A stretch of 50,709 nt of DNA, from sequence record NC_049824.1. One strand, given 5' to 3'. This document shows, piece after piece, positions 7,915-49,498 of this stretch (positions within the stretch are counted from its first letter, which is position 1; each line of letters opens with the position of its first letter). Position numbers and translations under genes: made by a program. The stretch comes from Escherichia phage vojen. The notes under the pieces were generated by a model that saw nothing but the letters and a program-made list of their open reading frames with translations, was not told the DNA's origin and searched no databases.

Positions 7915-8127
7915 ATGAAAATTCGAATCACCAGGGTTGACATTGACCGCAACGACGGAAGCATTACCCTTGAGCAATGCGGGTTCAAAGTTGGTGACAT
8001 TGTAGAGGTTGACGGATTCTTTCGCGATGGCTCTTACTGCGTGTTAGCAATCCGCAACACAGAAGAAATTCGAATCGGTGATAACATCGGCGTAAATCAT
8101 GACGAATGCGAGGTAGTAGAAGAATGA
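7915..8127 (+). CDS. hypothetical protein (70 aa)
   Basis: ORF with AGAGGAAA RBS. Confidence 0.55.
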   Translation: MKIRITRVDIDRNDGSITLEQCGFKVGDIVEVDGFFRDGSYCVLAIRNTEEIRIGDNIGVNHDECEVVEE

Positions 8128-8375
8128 TCACGATTAACCTTTCAGAAGAACAAGCAAAGAAACTCCTGCATGCTGTAGGTTCTCGTGCACTTTGCGGATC
8201 AACTGATGAAATGATGATTGATCATGATGTTGCAAGAGAGCTTTTTACTCAGCTTGAGCAAAAATTCTCACCACGTCCGACTGACGCGGCAGAAACTGCA
8301 AAATGGCTTGCTGAGAATGGATACACGGCTTTAAAAGTTCACAACTGGAAGCGAAAGCGCAAAAAAGACTGTTGA
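8124..8375 (+). CDS. hypothetical protein (83 aa)
   Basis: Start moved to ATG overlapping the upstream stop. Confidence 0.45.
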   Translation: MITINLSEEQAKKLLHAVGSRALCGSTDEMMIDHDVARELFTQLEQKFSPRPTDAAETAKWLAENGYTALKVHNWKRKRKKDC

Positions 8376-8429
8376 TCGTGTATCTGGTGTTGTTTCTCGC
8401 TGCATTATGGTTGATGTGGAGAAATTAAA

Positions 8430-8741
8430 ATGATTTATATTCACACTTACGGGATCGGGAAATTTGCCAACAAGCAGATCCGAAATATTTACGACACGCT
8501 AGACGATGCGAAAGCACAGCAACGCGTTTTGGGTGGTGTAATTCAGGCTTTTGAGTTAGTGGAAGACATAGAGCGCCGAGAGCATTTGAAAGAGATTATT
8601 GTTGATGAAATTTCATCACTAATCGACGACATGACAAATCACGGGCCTGGTTCTCCGTGGGAAGAAGCCGGATCGACGGAGTGGGATTGCGCTAAAGTTG
8701 CAACGCTTAACAACTTTCGTGAGTTGCTCGACGATTTTTAA
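8430..8741 (+). CDS. acidic hypothetical protein (103 aa)
   Basis: ORF with GGAGA RBS; D/E-rich composition. Confidence 0.55.
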   Translation: MIYIHTYGIGKFANKQIRNIYDTLDDAKAQQRVLGGVIQAFELVEDIERREHLKEIIVDEISSLIDDMTNHGPGSPWEEAGSTEWDCAKVATLNNFRELLDDF

Positions 8742-8750
8742 TTAAAATTG

Positions 8751-8797
8751 AATGCCTCACACAGCGAACAGGGCGCATTTTGACGAGGCATTTTTTA
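8751..8797 (+). terminator. Putative intrinsic terminator (long-loop hairpin + T-run)
   Basis: ATGCCTC...GAGGCAT inverted repeat followed by TTTTTT. Confidence 0.35.
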
Positions 8798-8811
8798 GGT
8801 AAGGTGATTTA

Positions 8812-8940
8812 ATGGATAACTACATAAAACCGTCGCAGTGGCGCGCACAGATGCAAGAGCAAGCATTAGAGCGCGGCGACACTGAAACGGCAATGCACTA
8901 TTTCGAAATGTACAACTTGTGGAAGGATAGGGGTCTGTAA
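8812..8940 (+). CDS. small hypothetical protein (42 aa)
   Basis: Short ORF with AGGTGA RBS; stop overlaps the next start. Confidence 0.3.
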   Translation: MDNYIKPSQWRAQMQEQALERGDTETAMHYFEMYNLWKDRGL

Positions 8941-9170
8941 TGTTTGGAATGAACGAAGCACAATTCAACGCTGCAAAACGCCAGGCTAAGAAGTGCGGCG
9001 AGGCAATGAAGGCGGATGTTGAAAAGCGAGGGAAGTATGTTGATGAAGTCATGAAGGGCATTATTGCCGAACATTATCAGCCAGTTGCGCCAATGCTGAC
9101 AATTACCCAATTCATCTGGTTGTGTGGTTATCTTCGTGGGAGGTGGGGAAACGCATTTGACCGCGAATGA
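8940..9170 (+). CDS. hypothetical protein (76 aa)
   Basis: ORF with TAATG overlap to the upstream small ORF. Confidence 0.5.
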   Translation: MFGMNEAQFNAAKRQAKKCGEAMKADVEKRGKYVDEVMKGIIAEHYQPVAPMLTITQFIWLCGYLRGRWGNAFDRE

Positions 9171-38956: not shown

Positions 38957-39430
38957 TTAGCAATTAGTGCTTTCAGGTTTATACAGGAATCCGCCAGGTT
39001 CATAATCTGACATTCTTACCACTCGCAACATTTCACGCTTATCACATCTCTTTGTGAGCGGTTTTCCATTGGAATCAAATCGCAGATCTGGACGGCAGAA
39101 TGAAGCGCGATAGCCTTGACAGCCATACTTTTTGTAATCGTTATGCACCTTTTGAGCGCCAGCGGCTGAAATCATACCGCGAACGCGCCACTGATTTACA
39201 GTTTGCTGGCTAACGTTAAGACGCTTTGCCATTGCTGACACGCTGCCGTAATACTCAATAAGAATGTCAAGCCGTGCTTTTAGTCCGGCGCGCACTTCAT
39301 CTTTTAAAACATAGTATCCTGTAGGGCGCTTGCGCTTTTTCTTATCTTTACCCCGTCGAGTTCCGTTATTGCCATTGATTGTGCGTTTGTCAATCTTACC
39401 AGTTGATACTGCGATTCGCTGTTCTTTCAT
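38957..39430 (-). CDS. putative DNA-binding regulator (basic N-terminus, HTH-like segment)
   Basis: KDKKKRKRP basic stretch; LNVSQQTVNQWR HTH-like segment; GGAGA RBS; start abuts a conserved element in the divergent region. Confidence 0.5.
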   Translation of the reverse strand: MKEQRIAVSTGKIDKRTINGNNGTRRGKDKKKRKRPTGYYVLKDEVRAGLKARLDILIEYYGSVSAMAKRLNVSQQTVNQWRVRGMISAAGAQKVHNDYKKYGCQGYRASFCRPDLRFDSNGKPLTKRCDKREMLRVVRMSDYEPGGFLYKPESTNC

Positions 39431-39444
39431 TATTCATTCTCCAA

Positions 39445-39464
39445 TAGCATTTTTTGTTAAACGA
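39445..39464 (+). promoter_or_regulatory. Conserved element, variant ATAGCATTTTTTGTTAAACG
   Basis: In the divergent region between the HTH gene and helicase; TATTAT at a ~16-bp gap. Confidence 0.5.
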
Positions 39465-39519
39465 TGATTTAATGATTGTGTATTATACACGCCAAATGGC
39501 ATTACTCAAAGGTTTTAGA

Positions 39520-41565
39520 ATGATTCCAAACATTGAAAAGCAAATATCAGCACTTGGTGAAGCGGTAATTAAATCCATTCAGGAGCGATTCACTGTTGGC
39601 GAGATTGTGCCTTACCCTTACCAGTGCGTTGCATACGCTGAGATCGCAAAGCGTATGAAAAATTATGAGCATCCATTCTTTGTTAAAGCGTCCGTATCGG
39701 CTGGCAAAACATTGATGTTTGCAATGGTTGCTCACCAGTGCCGGAAAATGGGCTTGAAAATGATGGTACTTGCTCGCCAGGCTGAGATTGTGGATCAGGA
39801 TTCTGAAGAGATAACAAATCTTGGTGTGCCGAACTCCATCTATTGTGCAGGACTGAAGACAAAAAGCGCATACTTTCCGATCGTTGTTGGTTCTGAGGGA
39901 ACTGTAGTTAATGGACTGTTTAAAGCGCTTGGCGACTATGTTCCGCACGTTATCGGGATCGACGAGTGTCACCAGGTGGATTGGGAAGACCTTGCCGACG
40001 CAATAGAGAAAGACGAGTCATTTTTACAAATGACAACTAAGAAAGGCGAAAAAGTACCAAATCCAGATTATGACATAACAAAGGGAAGCAGGAACAGAAA
40101 TACAGAGTTCCTGATTGGTGAGGATGGCTTGCCAATGGAGGGAACAGGCCGCACACAATACACTGTCATTATCATGGAAATGATGCGCCGCTGCCGGAAA
40201 ACATATGGTCATGAACTGCGCATATTTGGCATGACTGGATCGGAGTTTCGCGGCGTAGTCCCGATCCTGGTGGAAGACAAAAAACAGAAAGGATTCTGGC
40301 GTGAACAGGTTACTAATATTGACACCAACTACCTGATCAAATTCGGTTCTGTTGTGCCAACAAATTTTGGCGACGTTGGCGATCTAGGGTATGACCTTTC
40401 AGAGTTTGAGGCATCCAGTGAGGATGGCGTTGCAGACTTTGACGCTAAAACGCTTCGCAGGATGGAACAAAAAATTCATGAAGAAGCGACCATGACAAAG
40501 CGCATCATGGCGAAAGTTCACGAGATCTGTAAAAACCGCAACGGCGTACTTGTGACATGTGCAGGAGAAAGGCATTGCAAAGAGGCAGCGGCAGCGTTGC
40601 CACCTGGAACGACTTACAGGATAATTACTGGTAAGACTGGCGACAATCAGCGCAAGGAGTGGTTAAGGGAAGCATACGAAGGGAAAGTAAAATACATCTT
40701 CCAGGTTCAGGCGCTAACAACTGGCGTTAACGTGCCGTTTTGGGATACGTCGGTTATATTGCGTAAGATTGGATCTCTTACGTTGCTGATTCAGCTTTTA
40801 GGACGCGGAATGCGACTTCTTAAGAAATGGCATAAGGAGCAAGGCTTCAAGAAAGATGATCACCTGGTTATGGATTTTTCAGGAACGATGGACGAGTTAG
40901 GTGAGCTTTATTTTGATCCGATACTTGAACAGGCGCAGCATCAGAAGCGATTCAGGAACGGTAAAGATCCGAAGCCTTGTCCTGTTTGTGGAACTCTTAA
41001 CAGCTATTATGCTCGTCGTTGTATGCACGTAGACGAAAACGGCAACAGATGCGAGTGGTTCTTTAAATTCAGGACATGTGATGATCAGATTGACCCACGC
41101 ACTAAAAAGATTATTCAGCGCGGCTGTGGAACTAAAAATGATATTGCGGCCAGGGTATGCAGACATTGCGACATGTCATTGATTGACCCTAACGAGAAGT
41201 TAAGCGGAAAGCACTACACAAAAAACGACTGGTTTCAGGTGCAATCTTTCTCGGTTGACATGACGAAAAACCAGAAAGGGATAATATTTAATTATGAGCT
41301 TTCCGATGGCATAGACACTTTCAGAGCGCGTGAAATATTTTTCCCTGAATCAGAAAGCCAAATTTGTCGCGCAAAATGGAGAAATGTTGCTCTTAAGCAC
41401 ATACCGGATCGCCGTATTGCTGGCATGGTGGCGAGCTATCGTAATGCACGTAAAATCATGCAATATGTGAATCACATCATGCCGCCATCGCGTGTTACTC
41501 ACAGAAAGACTAGCAAGAGTGAAGATAATTTGTACAAGAAGGACTTTAATTATGGCAATGACTGA
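39520..41565 (+). CDS. SF2 DNA helicase with C-terminal zinc-ribbon motifs
   Basis: Walker A SAGKT; DExH-like GIDECHQ; C-terminal CPVCG...RRC and CGTKN...CRHC; start moved from in-motif TTG to ATG. Confidence 0.65.
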   Translation: MIPNIEKQISALGEAVIKSIQERFTVGEIVPYPYQCVAYAEIAKRMKNYEHPFFVKASVSAGKTLMFAMVAHQCRKMGLKMMVLARQAEIVDQDSEEITNLGVPNSIYCAGLKTKSAYFPIVVGSEGTVVNGLFKALGDYVPHVIGIDECHQVDWEDLADAIEKDESFLQMTTKKGEKVPNPDYDITKGSRNRNTEFLIGEDGLPMEGTGRTQYTVIIMEMMRRCRKTYGHELRIFGMTGSEFRGVVPILVEDKKQKGFWREQVTNIDTNYLIKFGSVVPTNFGDVGDLGYDLSEFEASSEDGVADFDAKTLRRMEQKIHEEATMTKRIMAKVHEICKNRNGVLVTCAGERHCKEAAAALPPGTTYRIITGKTGDNQRKEWLREAYEGKVKYIFQVQALTTGVNVPFWDTSVILRKIGSLTLLIQLLGRGMRLLKKWHKEQGFKKDDHLVMDFSGTMDELGELYFDPILEQAQHQKRFRNGKDPKPCPVCGTLNSYYARRCMHVDENGNRCEWFFKFRTCDDQIDPRTKKIIQRGCGTKNDIAARVCRHCDMSLIDPNEKLSGKHYTKNDWFQVQSFSVDMTKNQKGIIFNYELSDGIDTFRAREIFFPESESQICRAKWRNVALKHIPDRRIAGMVASYRNARKIMQYVNHIMPPSRVTHRKTSKSEDNLYKKDFNYGND

Positions 41566-42044: not shown

Positions 42045-42746
42045 ATGAGTAAAGAAACTGAAGTGACATTTGAACAAATAGAAAGAGAAACATTCATTGG
42101 CAATGCTCTTGCTACTGGAGGCCATTACCAGGCTGTTAAACCAAATCAATATTATAAAGTCACTGGCAACCGCTATAACGGCAGCAATACGCCGGACGTT
42201 GTGCGCGATTTGTGGTCTACGCCGTATGAGCTTGTCGCATGGATGGAAAGCGAATACGGTGATTATGACATCGACGCGGCGGCAAGCAAAGAAAATGCTG
42301 TATGTGAAAAATTCTACAGCAAGGAAACAAATTGTTTAAAGCGTTGGTGGGGTAGTAATAAGCATATATGGCTGAATCCACCGTACAGCAATATTACGCC
42401 ATTTGTTAAGAAGGCGATTGAGCAAATGGAGCACGGAAACCAGATCGACATGCTTTTACCTTGCGACACGTCAACAGGATGGTTTTATGAGGCGCAACAG
42501 CACGCAGCGGAAATAATCTGGATCACTGGAGAAGTTTACCAGGAGGACGGAACAGAATATTCCCGCACCGGACGCCTGGCGTTCACTTCAGCGCTTACAG
42601 GTAAACCAGTGCAGGGTAACAATAAAGGAAGCGTTATTTTCATCATGCGCGAACTTAAAGAAGGTGAGCAGCAGAAAACGCGATACGTTAAAATCAGCGA
42701 CATTTGCCCTTCGGTGGCAGACCGTCGCGCACGGAAACGGAGCTAA
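42045..42746 (+). CDS. dam: DNA N6-adenine methyltransferase (phage Dam-like)
   Basis: NPPY catalytic motif (LNPPYS) in a 233-aa protein. Confidence 0.7.
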   Translation: MSKETEVTFEQIERETFIGNALATGGHYQAVKPNQYYKVTGNRYNGSNTPDVVRDLWSTPYELVAWMESEYGDYDIDAAASKENAVCEKFYSKETNCLKRWWGSNKHIWLNPPYSNITPFVKKAIEQMEHGNQIDMLLPCDTSTGWFYEAQQHAAEIIWITGEVYQEDGTEYSRTGRLAFTSALTGKPVQGNNKGSVIFIMRELKEGEQQKTRYVKISDICPSVADRRARKRS

Positions 42747-42750
42747 AACA

Positions 42751-42990
42751 ATGCAGAAAGAAAGAAGCGTTTATTTAAATGAAACTGGCGAATGGTTGTT
42801 ATTTCGCGCTATGGTTTGCGAGGCGCTTGATAAAAACGATTTCATAAAACCGCTATTAGGTTGCGATCCGTGGGAGTTTACAAGCGCTCTTGACATGAGC
42901 TTTGAGGAAACAAGAAAACTACCACTTGAAAAATGGCATGAGCAGATCGGTAAAGACTTGCAAGAGTTTTACGAATCCGCGTCAAAATAG
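42751..42990 (+). CDS. hypothetical protein (79 aa)
   Basis: Start moved to ATG with GGAG RBS; TAG stop lies inside the next motif copy. Confidence 0.45.
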   Translation: MQKERSVYLNETGEWLLFRAMVCEALDKNDFIKPLLGCDPWEFTSALDMSFEETRKLPLEKWHEQIGKDLQEFYESASK

Positions 42991-43006: not shown

Positions 43007-43063
43007 GCCCGGCCTTGTGTCGGGCATAATTATTTCAACGAAACAAACATGAGGAAATAAAAA

Positions 43064-43474: not shown

Positions 43475-43572
43475 GGATTATTATCATGTGGCGTTTGTTA
43501 CTTTTGCCCTTACCTGTTATGATGGCGATCTCTATTGTATATGTTGTCATAATGAGATAAGGAGAATTTTTG

Positions 43573-44688
43573 ATGAAGCAAATCAAAATCACAGATGAAC
43601 AATTTATCAATGAGCGCAAGCAGGGAAAGACATATAAGCAGATCGCTAATGAGTATGGTATGAACGTTCGCAGCATTGAGCGACGCGCGGCACGATTAGC
43701 AAAGCAAGGTAAAGTTACAACCATCGGATCACCTGGTTTTGGTGTTACTGGAGAATCAAAGCTAATTGATAAAGATGGCAATGTGGTTATGACATGGATT
43801 AAGACAAGTAAGGACCGCGAACAGTTAGAAGCATTAATGCAGGCCGCTATGGATGCATTTAGCGAAGAAGTTCCTCGACTTGATCCACAGCCAGAATCAC
43901 AAAAGGATTATAGCGAGACGTTATCACTGTATCCGATCTTTGACATGCACTTGGGAGCAATGGCGCATAAGCATGAATGCGGCGAGAATTGGGATACAGC
44001 AACAGCAGAGCGCGTAATGAATAATTTCATTGATTATTCCATCCAGTGCGCGCCGGATAGTGAAAAGGCTGTTTTACTGATTGGTGGTGACATGCTTCAC
44101 AGCGACGGACTGGAGGCGGTGACACCTGCAAGCGGTCACGTATTGGATCAAGATAGTCGATATGCAAAACTTGTTTATGTTGCCATCCGGTCAGTGCGTC
44201 GAGCAATTACAAAGCTGTTATCAAAACACAAAAACGTCGAGATTCAGATCATTGAAGGCAACCACGACCAAAGCGGCATGATCTGGTTGCGCGCAGCAAT
44301 GGCGGCAGCATATGAGAATGAGCCGCGAGTGCATGTTGATGTTTCTCCGCGAGTAGTTCATCACACACAGTATGGCAAAACATTCCTGGCATACCATCAC
44401 GGGCACACTATCCGCAAGCCTGAAACATTGCTCATGATGTGCGCGGCAGACTGGCGCGAAGACTTCGGCAATTCAAAAATGATGTATGCTCACGTAGGGC
44501 ATTGGCATCATCAAACAGTAACCGAAACAAGCCTGGGAATTGTTGAAGTGCATAGCACTATGGCGGCAAAAGATGCATATGCGGCGCGCGGTGGATGGCG
44601 TTCTCGCCGCCGTGCGGCTGTTATTGTTTATGATAAAGAATACGGAGAAGTGGGGCGATTTATGCATTATCCAGAAATGGCTGGTTGA
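43573..44688 (+). CDS. metallophosphoesterase with N-terminal HTH-like segment
   Basis: Calcineurin-like motifs DMH, GGDMLH, GNHD and HWHH; N-terminal TYKQIANEYGMNVRSIERRAARL; AAGGAG RBS. Confidence 0.55.
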   Translation: MKQIKITDEQFINERKQGKTYKQIANEYGMNVRSIERRAARLAKQGKVTTIGSPGFGVTGESKLIDKDGNVVMTWIKTSKDREQLEALMQAAMDAFSEEVPRLDPQPESQKDYSETLSLYPIFDMHLGAMAHKHECGENWDTATAERVMNNFIDYSIQCAPDSEKAVLLIGGDMLHSDGLEAVTPASGHVLDQDSRYAKLVYVAIRSVRRAITKLLSKHKNVEIQIIEGNHDQSGMIWLRAAMAAAYENEPRVHVDVSPRVVHHTQYGKTFLAYHHGHTIRKPETLLMMCAADWREDFGNSKMMYAHVGHWHHQTVTETSLGIVEVHSTMAAKDAYAARGGWRSRRRAAVIVYDKEYGEVGRFMHYPEMAG

Positions 44689-44731: not shown

Positions 44732-44761
44732 GGGCGTGGCATTTTGCTTCGCCCTTTTTTT
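44732..44761 (+). terminator. Rho-independent terminator
   Basis: GGGCG...CGCCC hairpin followed by TTTTTTTATT. Confidence 0.6.
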
Positions 44762-46071: not shown

Positions 46072-46464
46072 TCATGTGAGATTGAACTTACGGCGCAGAA
46101 CTTCAATATTTTGTCTATTAGCATTTGACGTAAACAATTCTTCATCGCTCATTTCCCCGATCCGTAAAACATCCCTTACCCATTCGTTTTGCATACCTTC
46201 CAGGCTGTAAAGTTCAAACGAGAAAGGGCGATTTGCGGATCCTTTCTTACACCAGAACTTTCCACCAACTCCATCAAGATAACCAGCGGTCATCATTCTT
46301 GCGCAAAACTCTTTTGAAACGGCAGTCGCAAACATTCTCGGCGTAAATCCTGCGGCCCTTGCGAGCCGCTCACATTCTCTATGCTGAAATATAAATTTTG
46401 CGATATGTTGACGTGTAAACCATTCGAATGACTCGCACCAGCGATACAGATCCAGAAGAAACAT
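46072..46464 (-). CDS. hypothetical protein (130 aa)
   Basis: ORF adjacent downstream of the ATPase gene on the minus strand. Confidence 0.5.
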   Translation of the reverse strand: MFLLDLYRWCESFEWFTRQHIAKFIFQHRECERLARAAGFTPRMFATAVSKEFCARMMTAGYLDGVGGKFWCKKGSANRPFSFELYSLEGMQNEWVRDVLRIGEMSDEELFTSNANRQNIEVLRRKFNLT

Positions 46465-46466
46465 AA

Positions 46467-48050
46467 TTACCCCAGCAATGTTGGATTTACGAAAACAACG
46501 CCATTAATCACACAAATATAATTTCTTTCCTCAAGCATCGGAAGCAGTTGCGTTTCCATGCGCTTCATTACGCCAGCCTGACCAACAAAAGGCTTAACTT
46601 TTCGTGCAGCCTCATATATGGCGCGCACATTCAAGATCCCCTTGTTAGCCTTACCGTGTCGAGTGATAATCTCGATTAGTTTGCCCATTTCAGCATCATC
46701 ACCAGCATAGCCAGAAGCGTTGGCGGCGCTAATGTATGTTTTGCTCAACTCGCTAAACATCAGCAGTGCTTCTTGAACGGTTTCAACTTCAATCTCTTTC
46801 GACTTCTGAGGGTATCCACCAGGATTAAACCAGTTGCGGATAGTGTGCAAAACCGAAGCAATCCTGATCACCTGCTTATCCATTTTGCCAAGAGCACCGC
46901 GCAGCATTGTATGCGAATACTTTCCGCCATCAGCAAGGTGCGGCTCCATCTCCTGACGAGCCATGTTAAGAACTCGCATTGCTGATTTGCTGATCTTAAG
47001 CTGGATGTTTGATTCACTCATGATGTTATGGATCAGCTTAAAATATTGACTTTTCAGTTCTCCATCAACAGGCTCATAAGTAGAATCACCGTTATCATCA
47101 ACAAACTTTCGACGACCTAAAAATGATTCCTCACGCACAAGCAAATAACGCTCACTCACACCGATACCGCGCGATCCTGCATCCATGATGGCATTGATTG
47201 TTTCATCCTGGGCAATCACCGCCATACAGCCAAGAGCTTTAAAACTCATATTGTTGTCAGCGTTTGCACGAGCTATAGAAACATGACCATGATCCCATGC
47301 TTTCAGCACAAGTTCGCTGTTGGTTTTACGTTCGCCATTAGCATATGTCAGACCTAAAAGGCTGTTAATACTCGTTGCCTCGTCTGAAATCACAGCAAAG
47401 TTACCCTGGCGATTGTTGATTCTTGCAAGTCCTTCCGGCGTGGTGTCGGACACAGGGAAAACAATGTCACACATCTTTTCCAGTTTTTCTTCCAGATCTT
47501 CTTTCTCTTGGTATAGCGATTCCATATCAGCACCAGATCGCTCGCTCTTCATCTCTTTTGCAAGACCTGCCAACTTTGCCTGAATCTTTTTCCGCTCCTT
47601 CTTTCGCTGATCATTAATTCTTTCCACTTCAGCAACCATAGGAGCAAGAGCCAGGCTGTTAACGGCAGATTTACCAGTTGAAGGAGGCTGGCTTGTGACA
47701 ACATAAAGAGCGGTTGGCTGATCCGTTCCGTGATACTCAACCGTGAATCGTCCAAGCATTGCAGCAGACACACAGCCGATAAAATGCATATATGCCGATG
47801 ATTCAGGGAATTGAACAGATCGAGCAATGTTGCGCGCCAACTTGCCAACAACATCAACATCATTGCCAAGAGAAATTACAGGGTAGCGATCGTTTCCGTT
47901 ATTAACATCATTAACCTCACCCCAAAAGCTGGACGATTGACGGTATCCGTTAGCCTGAATGGACACGCGCACCGGAGACAATCCTTGTGCATCAGCTAAT
48001 TCGATAATTTGTTTTGGTGTTAGTTTATTGGTTTCAAACGAAAAATTCAT
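46467..48050 (-). CDS. P-loop ATPase, putative replicative helicase / primase-associated ATPase
   Basis: Walker A QPPSTGKSA; start moved to ATG with AAGGAG RBS. Confidence 0.45.
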   Translation of the reverse strand: MNFSFETNKLTPKQIIELADAQGLSPVRVSIQANGYRQSSSFWGEVNDVNNGNDRYPVISLGNDVDVVGKLARNIARSVQFPESSAYMHFIGCVSAAMLGRFTVEYHGTDQPTALYVVTSQPPSTGKSAVNSLALAPMVAEVERINDQRKKERKKIQAKLAGLAKEMKSERSGADMESLYQEKEDLEEKLEKMCDIVFPVSDTTPEGLARINNRQGNFAVISDEATSINSLLGLTYANGERKTNSELVLKAWDHGHVSIARANADNNMSFKALGCMAVIAQDETINAIMDAGSRGIGVSERYLLVREESFLGRRKFVDDNGDSTYEPVDGELKSQYFKLIHNIMSESNIQLKISKSAMRVLNMARQEMEPHLADGGKYSHTMLRGALGKMDKQVIRIASVLHTIRNWFNPGGYPQKSKEIEVETVQEALLMFSELSKTYISAANASGYAGDDAEMGKLIEIITRHGKANKGILNVRAIYEAARKVKPFVGQAGVMKRMETQLLPMLEERNYICVINGVVFVNPTLLG

Positions 48051-48101
48051 TGATGATAACTCCTTTTTGATGCGGCAATAATACCGCACCAATGCTACCC
48101 G

Positions 48102-48121
48102 CATTTAACAAAAAATGCTAT
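48102..48121 (-). promoter_or_regulatory. Conserved element, variant (minus-strand reading ATAGCATTTTTTGTTAAATG)
   Basis: Variant motif followed by TGCGG...CCGCA dyad around TATTAT at an 18-bp gap; overlaps the TAG stop of gene 48118..48339. Confidence 0.5.
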
Positions 48122-48777: not shown

Positions 48778-48797
48778 CTTTTAACAAAAAGTGCTAT
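48778..48797 (-). promoter_or_regulatory. Conserved 20-bp element (minus-strand reading ATAGCACTTTTTGTTAAAAG)
   Basis: Exact motif followed by GCCAGG...CCTGGC dyad and CATAAT at an 18-bp gap, then RBS and ATG of 48336..48722. Confidence 0.55.
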
Positions 48798-49498
48798 TTT
48801 GCGTTAGCTTCAAAGACTGCGCGGGCAAAACCGCGCGGGGTGAGGGAGCGGATCATCTTTGTGCGAGATGATTTTCCGCCAGTTTTGGCCCAACCAGGAT
48901 TATCCTTCTCAGTTGGTAATATCATGTTTTTAGGTGGAACGATAAATCCGTTACCAGTCCAAAGGCATGTTTTCTTAAAGTACCGATCCCGCGCAGGAAT
49001 AATATCAGGGAAGTCGGGATGTTTATCATCTTCCGGTAAATATCCGGCGTAATCGCACGGATGGAACGTGTAATCAGGCTTACGCCATAACGTTGACAGC
49101 TTGCCTACAGGATTCTCTATCATGTAAGGAACACCGAAATAATCAGCGATATGCGCGGCTATTTTGCAAGTGTCGGCGGCCTCATTTTGGAAGTTAGGAT
49201 TTTCCATGCGCTTTTTAGCCCAATGGCGAGATCCGCTGTTTGCTAATTGTGTGCAAGGTGGGAAGGCCATAATGAAATCAGGCTTACCCCAATTTTCAAG
49301 TTTTGCGGTATATTTGAATAGATCATCAATCCACACATTAACGTAAAAAATATTATCATGGATTATGCGCACTGAGTGGTAATCTCCGTGATCAGCATCA
49401 TCGTAATTAAAGCAAATGCATTTATATCCATCATCAGCCCAATCTTTAACAGCCTTACCAGATCCATCAAACAAAGAGAAAATTAAACCTTTATACAT
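48794..49498 (-). CDS. DNA cytosine-C5 methyltransferase-like protein
   Basis: Motif I-like LFDGSGKA, PC-containing motif IV-like FPPCTQ, ENV-like MIENPVG; 234 aa is short for this family. Confidence 0.5.
   Translation of the reverse strand: MYKGLIFSLFDGSGKAVKDWADDGYKCICFNYDDADHGDYHSVRIIHDNIFYVNVWIDDLFKYTAKLENWGKPDFIMAFPPCTQLANSGSRHWAKKRMENPNFQNEAADTCKIAAHIADYFGVPYMIENPVGKLSTLWRKPDYTFHPCDYAGYLPEDDKHPDFPDIIPARDRYFKKTCLWTGNGFIVPPKNMILPTEKDNPGWAKTGGKSSRTKMIRSLTPRGFARAVFEANAK

Follow-up and report, generated by a model that had tools for sequence, protein, structure and literature searches.

A helix-turn-helix metallophosphoesterase of Escherichia phage vojen belongs to a large phage family and may act as a DNA-tethered nuclease

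The DNA analysed here (hereinafter designated the window) is the 50,709-nucleotide sequence of Escherichia phage vojen (NC_049824.1), which is the whole genome of a T1-like siphophage (Drexlerviridae, Tempevirinae, Hanrivervirus). Its + strand encodes, at 43573..44688, a protein of 371 residues plus stop codon in which an N-terminal helix-turn-helix (HTH) is joined to a calcineurin-like metallophosphoesterase (MPE) domain (hereinafter designated HTH-MPE). On balance, and with somewhat better than even confidence, we read HTH-MPE as a stand-alone two-metal DNA nuclease that is tethered by its HTH and belongs to the early/middle DNA-metabolism programme. In the mechanism that we infer, the basic HTH, of LuxR/sigma-70 region 4 type, would keep the enzyme on duplex DNA, and the C-terminal domain would bind two metal ions through D124/H126, D173, N230, H276 and H310/H312, with H231 as the transition-state histidine. 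The metal centre would cleave DNA phosphodiester bonds in the manner of Mre11/SbcD and of DP1, the proofreading exonuclease of PolD. Neither a Rad50/SbcC ATPase nor a capping domain would be needed, the HTH taking over substrate recruitment, and the protein would be produced from the last gene of an early/middle DNA-metabolism transcription unit.

The catalytic MPE domain spans residues 114-366 (43912..44670; + strand, as for all features below unless stated otherwise). The superfamily motif set D-x-H / GD / GNH[DE] / H / GH / GHxH is complete and properly spaced: motif I is D124-M-H126 (43942..43950), motif II G171-G-D-M-L-H176 (44083..44100), motif III G229-N-H-D232 (44257..44268), motifs IV/V H276-G-H278 (44398..44406) and motif VI G309-H-W-H-H313 (44497..44511). 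The four motifs named in the initial annotation (DMH, GDxxH, GNHD and HWHH) are thus all present at the expected spacing, and the HGH at residues 276-278 is additional; chance could hardly produce such a set. Across an alignment of 149 representatives sharing 30-90% identity, the sole invariant columns are D124, H126, D173, N230, H231, H276 and H312, which are the MPE metal/catalytic set; H176, G229 and H310 are conserved at a level of at least 90%. Since invariance is confined to these seven residues, catalysis is the selected function. Neither PF00149 nor PF12850 reaches its gathering threshold: Pfam Metallophos scores 14.2 bits on the query, short of its cut-off of 21.5 bits, and reaches E 4.3e-4 at best on relatives; judged by its sequences, the family is too divergent for Pfam models. 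The Pfam match being sub-threshold, placement in the superfamily draws on the motifs, on conservation within the family and on the fold model, which shows the beta-sandwich MPE fold.

Motif II is followed by a family-specific loop (residues 176-196; 44098..44160) with the sequence HSDGLEAVTPASGHVLDQDSR, which is conserved like the catalytic motifs: H176, D178, T184, L191, D192, D194 and R196 are each kept in at least 90% of the diverse set, and P185 and S187 are additionally invariant among close relatives. The loop is mostly coil, is confidently modelled with the deep alignment, and could not be matched to a counterpart in the Mre11/DP1 comparisons made. It may define substrate specificity.

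The HTH (residues 5-47; 43585..43713) is basic, with an isoelectric point (pI) of 10.3 (family median 9.3), and resembles LuxR/GerE and sigma-70 region 4 domains. Both HTH matches of the query in Pfam fall below cut-off (HTH_28, E 0.0026, 18.3 bits against 25; Sigma70_r4_2, E 0.076). Sigma70_r4_2 is matched by 6 of 12 relatives, at best with E 4.5e-6, and GerE (6e-4), HTH_8 and HTH_1 each match single members; a PDB search with the family profile picks up HTH structures of GerE/LuxR type (E 0.029); and structure prediction yields a three-helix bundle over residues 8-44 (helices 8-16, 21-28 and 32-44; predicted local distance difference test, pLDDT, 80-95). As the call for the query is weak in Pfam alone, it also rests on the relatives, the family profile and the predicted bundle, from which the HTH may hold a LuxR/GerE / sigma-70 region 4-type fold. 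HTH and MPE domain are connected by a linker module (residues 55-100; 43735..43872), modelled as a beta-hairpin (strands 56-65 and 71-80) and a long helix (82-99), in which G69 and W75 are conserved at a level of at least 90% in the 149-sequence alignment. Motifs, conservation and fold model together support the joining of an HTH and a calcineurin-like MPE in one protein, as initially proposed.

The fold was modelled with AlphaFold2 from the 149 diverse sequences (pLDDT 94; predicted template modelling score, pTM, 0.79), replacing a model from 28 close homologs (pLDDT 76), and consists of the three-helix HTH (8-44), the beta-hairpin and helix (56-99) and the MPE domain (114-366). Ser/Thr phosphatases, Mre11/SbcD-like nucleases and cyclic-nucleotide phosphodiesterases, the candidate classes suggested at the outset, are the right ones to weigh, and profile search and structure prediction, the suggested route to subfamily placement, identify the nucleases PolD DP1, Mre11 and SbcD as nearest. 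In the structure comparison, the model scores highest with the PolD DP1 proofreading exonuclease (15.8), followed by T. maritima Mre11 (15.0), S. aureus SbcD (14.7), MJ0936 (14.1), LpxH (13.7), further Mre11 chains (13.6-12.4), Rv0805/Icc and GpdQ (12.5) and PP5 (9.2). Foldseek against the PDB likewise places Mre11 (4o43, 4tug) and DP1 on top, with E from 6e-8 to 1e-7, and GpdQ next at 5.5e-7. A profile of the MPE domain only, run against 177,635 PDB sequences, recovers just T. maritima Mre11/SbcD, at a non-significant E of 0.04, besides low-scoring noise and a P. putida 'Nuclease MPE'; the HMMER alignment sets the family's tDlHlGm and GDflH opposite SDWHLG and GDLLH of T. maritima Mre11. Searching the PDB with the single protein gives only noise (E above 1), and a fold search of BFVD returns only uncharacterised phage homologs. 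By structure and profile comparison, nucleases therefore rank above cyclic-nucleotide phosphodiesterases, which in turn rank above protein phosphatases. The three methods agree on the nuclease branch, with modest margins over generic MPEs.

These comparisons bear directly on two readings in which the substrate is not DNA. A small-molecule hydrolase of the LpxH, YfcE, MJ0936 or Ap4A-hydrolase kind could act on nucleotide pools or on another phosphodiester or pyrophosphate metabolite, and LpxH and MJ0936 do appear among the higher structure scores. The longest structural alignments, however, are those with DP1 (205 residues) and Mre11 (189), as against ~160 for small MPEs; the GDxxH form of motif II lines up with T. 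maritima Mre11; and the HTH fusion points to a DNA-associated activity. We regard such a hydrolase as unlikely. A Ser/Thr (or Tyr) protein phosphatase of lambda-PP/PPP type, acting on host or phage phosphoproteins, would belong to the same superfamily, and the GenBank record of one homolog is named 'putative serine/threonine protein phosphatase'. HTH-MPE shows neither the GDxVDRG / GNHE / HGG motifs of the PPP type nor a PPP-like nearest fold, and no PPP phosphatase is found among the top 50 Foldseek matches in the PDB, so that protein dephosphorylation is the most improbable of the functions considered.

Within the nuclease branch, likeness to Mre11/SbcD lies in the motif II histidine of GDxxH (H176, aligned with the histidine of T. 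maritima GDLLH) and in a DxHLG-like motif I context. Several differences set HTH-MPE apart. The capping domain of Mre11/SbcD (3qg5/4o43; S. aureus SbcD, 7dog) is absent, as HTH-MPE ends with its MPE domain at residue 371, and the model aligns with just 185-189 residues of Mre11/SbcD chains that are 319-362 residues long. Compared with these enzymes, HTH-MPE adds the N-terminal HTH, the hairpin-helix module and the conserved 20-residue loop after motif II. A Rad50/SbcC-like partner was sought among the phage open reading frames (ORFs) of at least 500 residues, and no SMC-like ATPase was seen: the 703- and 545-residue products are helicases and the 691-residue product is a tail fiber by PHROG search, and the 522-, 890- and 1141-residue products, which were not searched, are assigned by position and T1 counterparts as terminase large subunit, tape measure and tail tip. 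DP1 (5ihe), a 3'-5' proofreading exonuclease, shares 14-15% identity with HTH-MPE, whose N-terminus is an HTH, not an oligonucleotide/oligosaccharide-binding (OB) fold; neither a DP2 partner nor a phage DNA polymerase was seen among the annotated window ORFs. Because the capping domain and the Rad50/SbcC partner are absent and the margins are modest, we do not file HTH-MPE under Mre11/SbcD; it is probably a distinct MPE family with a nuclease-like way of working. Clear membership of a housekeeping nuclease family, an outcome weighed in the initial annotation, is thus borne out only in part: nucleases do rank first, but the margins are small and the two hallmarks of the Mre11/SbcD system are missing.

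The initial annotation had called the DNA-binding fusion unusual, whereas HTH plus MPE turns out to be the usual design in a very large family of phage proteins. An exhaustive HMMER search yields 4649 clusters (50% identity) at a cut-off of E 1e-3, of which 1042 remain at E 1e-30. By tblastn, 2006 of 50,697 phage records, or ~4% of the phage genomes sequenced, contain a homolog; among them are T1-like phages, Jerseyvirus, Dhillonvirus, Vibrio, Rhizobium and Roseobacter siphophages, a Proteus podophage and Campylobacter myophages. Nearly all family representatives are 340-440 residues long and start with an HTH-like segment. A hidden Markov model (HMM) of the HTH region detects the HTH in 132 of the 149 diverse representatives, and the hairpin-helix linker is found in 140; as the HTH model was built from the same 149 sequences, these counts show consistency and are not an independent test. 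Some homologs lack the HTH, for example that of Campylobacter phage CP30A. Of 522 Drexlerviridae genomes, 508 carry the gene, which is a persistent member of the core genome (PMC13164509). Among database entries, Campylobacter-named records (20 in the megablast list, e.g. MG065643.1, phage E6) and Streptococcus phage MBBL140 carry 79-96%-identical copies of the gene in genomes of ~49-50 kb; these records look like T1-like coliphage contaminants or mislabelled hosts.

This distribution is pertinent to the idea, raised from the sequence at the outset, that the MPE degrades defence signals, cleaving cyclic mono-, di- or oligonucleotides of CBASS, Pycsar, type III CRISPR or Thoeris, or cyclic AMP. 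Phosphodiesterases do figure in the structural ranking, but nucleases outrank them in the profile search as well as in the two structure searches, and an obligatory, putatively DNA-binding HTH has no obvious use in a hydrolase of soluble signals. Known anti-defence genes are typically accessory and variable; HTH-MPE, by contrast, is persistent in the Drexlerviridae and also sits in replication modules of temperate prophages, and its surroundings are DNA-metabolism modules. A PADLOC search yields no HTH-MPE relatives, and we know of no anti-CBASS or anti-Pycsar enzyme with an MPE fold. The signal-degrading proposal therefore finds no positive support and is, in our estimate, very unlikely. Even less probable, if only slightly, is a version in which HTH-MPE is a DNA-anchored phosphodiesterase rather than a nuclease and the loop at residues 176-196 provides the pocket in which immune messengers, cyclic or linear oligonucleotides, are bound.

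In the window, HTH-MPE is the last gene of a rightward unit comprising a helicase (39454-41565), a PHROG 824 ORF, a Dam-type methyltransferase (42045-42746) and three small ORFs; the PHROG 824 ORF, downstream of the helicase, is small and has a weak endonuclease match. In T1, too, the gene comes after the helicase and Dam. The gene is followed by a strong intrinsic terminator (44732..44761; a GGGCG..CGCCC stem and then T7), at -14.6 kcal/mol and z -3.6, with 0 of 200 shuffled sequences as stable. It parts HTH-MPE from the lysis cassette, which comes next, and in T1 a rho-independent terminator is annotated at the corresponding position behind ORF16. Upstream, a terminator-like hairpin (GCCCGGCCTTGTGTCGGGC, then a T-rich tail) lies at 43007-43025, just past a small ORF ending at 42990, and T1 has an annotated terminator after ORF19. 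In view of this hairpin and the T1 terminator, HTH-MPE may, with the two small ORFs that precede it, form a sub-unit of its own. A consensus scan gives one weak sigma-70-like promoter, TTGTTA-17-TATGAT with an upstream TG, at 43495..43523; promoter-like sites are depleted here relative to shuffled sequence, at 4 against an expected 10, so that this one is only a candidate.

Transcription signals also help to weigh a reading in which the HTH is the working part, for instance in regulating late or lysis genes, and the MPE serves as a sensor or accessory module. The HTH resembles sigma-70 region 4/LuxR, and the gene is often found at the edge of a lysis or terminase module, as in T1-like phages, Dhillonvirus, a Rhizobium phage and a Vibrio phage. 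The invariant part of the protein, however, is its set of catalytic residues and not the HTH, which some homologs lack altogether, and in the window a terminator stands between the gene and the lysis cassette. A search for repeated operator-like sites around the gene gave nothing convincing. The activator of the T1 hol and dam promoters is another protein, Pir/Orf23 (PMC6737242), which weakens the idea of HTH-MPE as a lysis-gene activator. We considered whether Pir might itself be HTH-MPE and rejected this, as Pir is a 157-residue regulator adjoining the primase; its counterpart in the window is the 157-residue regulator at 38957-39430. Taken together, a role as transcription factor seems quite unlikely.

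Elsewhere the gene occupies varied places. E. coli lambdoid prophages carry a 66%-identical homolog in the replication module, 19 nt upstream of dnaB (DnaB-type helicase), in the order cI-like repressor, cro-like gene, Lin1244_N replication protein, Ant (Ant/Bro-type), HTH-MPE, dnaB, NinB. The three E. coli prophage loci, with the HTH-MPE gene at 8001-9119 of each, are integrated next to ogt/fnr/uspE, and the clusters contain hundreds of member sequences (422 in one, 581 in another). In other Drexlerviridae, polynucleotide kinase and deoxynucleoside monophosphate (dNMP) kinase genes lie directly downstream. The HTH-less homolog of Campylobacter phage CP30A lies between DNA ligase/RusA and the tail sheath gene, that of a Proteus phage near dUTPase and dCMP deaminase, that of Dhillonvirus between lysis genes and terminase, and that of Jerseyvirus inside a small island with Ant. 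Over 92 loci the neighbours that recur are each specific to a lineage: directly downstream a Pnk-phosphatase-like HAD protein and dNMP kinase, and also HNH endonucleases, terminase, portal and endolysin. A scan of genome contigs with close homologs gave only two loci. The common denominator of these contexts is DNA and nucleotide metabolism.

For an HTH-tethered nuclease, we favour a role in processing DNA ends or structures during phage replication and recombination, because of the replication-module context in prophages. Host DNA breakdown for nucleotide salvage would be a close second, on account of the dNMP kinase and Pnk neighbours and of the T5 and mycobacteriophage precedents described below. 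Several observations weigh against the nuclease reading or narrow it. The matches to Mre11/SbcD, PdeM and Pfam Metallophos are all below significance: the NCBIfam search with the query gives one 32-residue PdeM match far below cut-off, and neither Pfam nor NCBIfam gives a match of the query to SbcD/Mre11 models. The MPE domain alone is not basic (pI ~6.3). The phage also encodes a RecE-like exonuclease, Erf and SSB for recombination. Clustering of the neighbours at the 92 loci reveals no partner conserved across lineages, and thus nothing that fixes the pathway. Literature searches for work on homologs of T1 ORF16, on escape mutants and on the degradation of host DNA by T1 turned up no experimental characterisation of any family member. 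The homologs in temperate prophages, finally, argue against wholesale host DNA destruction as a universal role.

The closest functional parallels come from two metallophosphatases that are themselves unrelated to HTH-MPE. A1 of phage T5 is a predicted metallophosphatase that its authors likened to double-strand-break-repair nucleases and polymerase proofreading subunits, and it is essential and sufficient for digestion of the host chromosome (bioRxiv 10.64898/2026.04.02.716235). Its Mre11/DP1 likeness names the same two neighbours as that of HTH-MPE, and the motif III context [ES]-[GS]-NHD-x3-S-x-WL is common to both families. A1 (PHROG 1745), however, has 556 residues, is a pre-early gene product and works with a separate DNA-binding protein, A2, whereas HTH-MPE is one 371-residue fusion. 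Aligning the HTH-MPE and A1 families with hhalign gives only a 22-column match at motif III with 18% probability, and T5 A1 matches only PHROG 1745. We also rejected A1/A2 as a split version of HTH-MPE, the hhalign probabilities being 14-18% for A1 and <1% for A2 against the HTH. As homology is not demonstrated in this way, A1 is treated as an analogue and not as a relative. Outside the Demerecviridae, many A1 homologs of ~530 residues have N-terminal HTH matches in Pfam (HTH_23, HTH_38, HTH_7 and CENP-B N-terminal). The A1-type combination of HTH and metallophosphatase is a second, apparently independent phage architecture parallel to HTH-MPE. By analogy, a less radical variant would make HTH-MPE the T1-group equivalent of A1, that is, a Rad50-independent, HTH-guided Mre11-like DNase for host chromosome breakdown. 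The second parallel is Gp48 of mycobacteriophage A10ZJ24, a cluster A MPE that has phosphodiesterase activity and damages host genomic DNA (PMC12287305). Gp48, for which no HTH fusion is reported, is non-essential in M. smegmatis, and no mycobacteriophage appears among the tblastn matches listed or the named organism groups of the 2006 records.

The gene itself is well known. HTH-MPE is the ortholog of T1 ORF16 (ST16, YP_003929.1) and pSf-1 gp10, a member of PHROG 704 ('DNA repair exonuclease') with a full-length HMM match (E 1.7e-151; residues 5-370 against profile positions 3-389 of 390), and shows no material difference from any of these; the PHROG name is a homology-based label. At the DNA level the region is 99% identical to Escherichia phage phiE31-2, whose gene product is 100% identical in protein sequence, and 97% identical to Shigella phage pSf-1, where gp10 is annotated with the same length of 371 residues. 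The Drexlerviridae phages KarlJaspers and JakobBernoulli of the BASEL collection are 97-98% identical in nucleotides. T1 ORF16 and pSf-1 gp10 occupy the same slot, between the Dam methylase region and the holin-endolysin-spanin cassette. GenBank names for homologs include 'putative phosphoesterase', 'DNA repair exonuclease' and 'sigma-70 region 4 domain-containing protein'. Translation ending at 44688 can start at the ATG at 43573 or at a TTG one codon upstream (43570); a Shine-Dalgarno sequence AGGAG, read directly from the sequence, lies at 43561..43565, 7 nt before the ATG. HTH-MPE is thus an already annotated core gene of the Drexlerviridae, with no novelty as a sequence feature.

Two further features of the neighbourhood are worth recording. 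HNH homing-endonuclease genes lie by the D5-like helicase in pSf-1 (gp17) and T1 (ST8), and T1 has another, ST15, between ORF16 and the holin; both insertions are missing from the window (window region 46072-48104, - strand). The window also encodes two different DNA methyltransferases, the PHROG 111 Dam-type enzyme at 42045-42746 (+ strand) and a PHROG 757 enzyme at 48794-49498 (- strand), of which the Dam-type gene is co-oriented with HTH-MPE and lies ~830 nt upstream.

As a feature of the window, then, the gene is ordinary, an almost identical copy of a Drexlerviridae core gene; the family to which it belongs extends to some 4% of phage genomes and thousands of clusters with strictly conserved catalytic residues. 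Should the MPE prove to be a DNase, the possibility that self and non-self DNA are told apart by methylation would deserve attention, given the Dam-type methyltransferase upstream. Were the anti-signalling proposal true after all, a core gene of T1-like phages and of many other siphophages would encode a broad, previously unrecognised anti-signalling enzyme of MPE fold. T1-like phages are genetically tractable, which makes the function of HTH-MPE directly testable. If HTH-MPE is truly a nuclease, it would parallel the recently recognised metallophosphatases T5 A1 and mycobacteriophage Gp48, and a Rad50-independent, HTH-guided Mre11-like enzyme would offer phages a simple route to process DNA or to recycle the DNA of their hosts.

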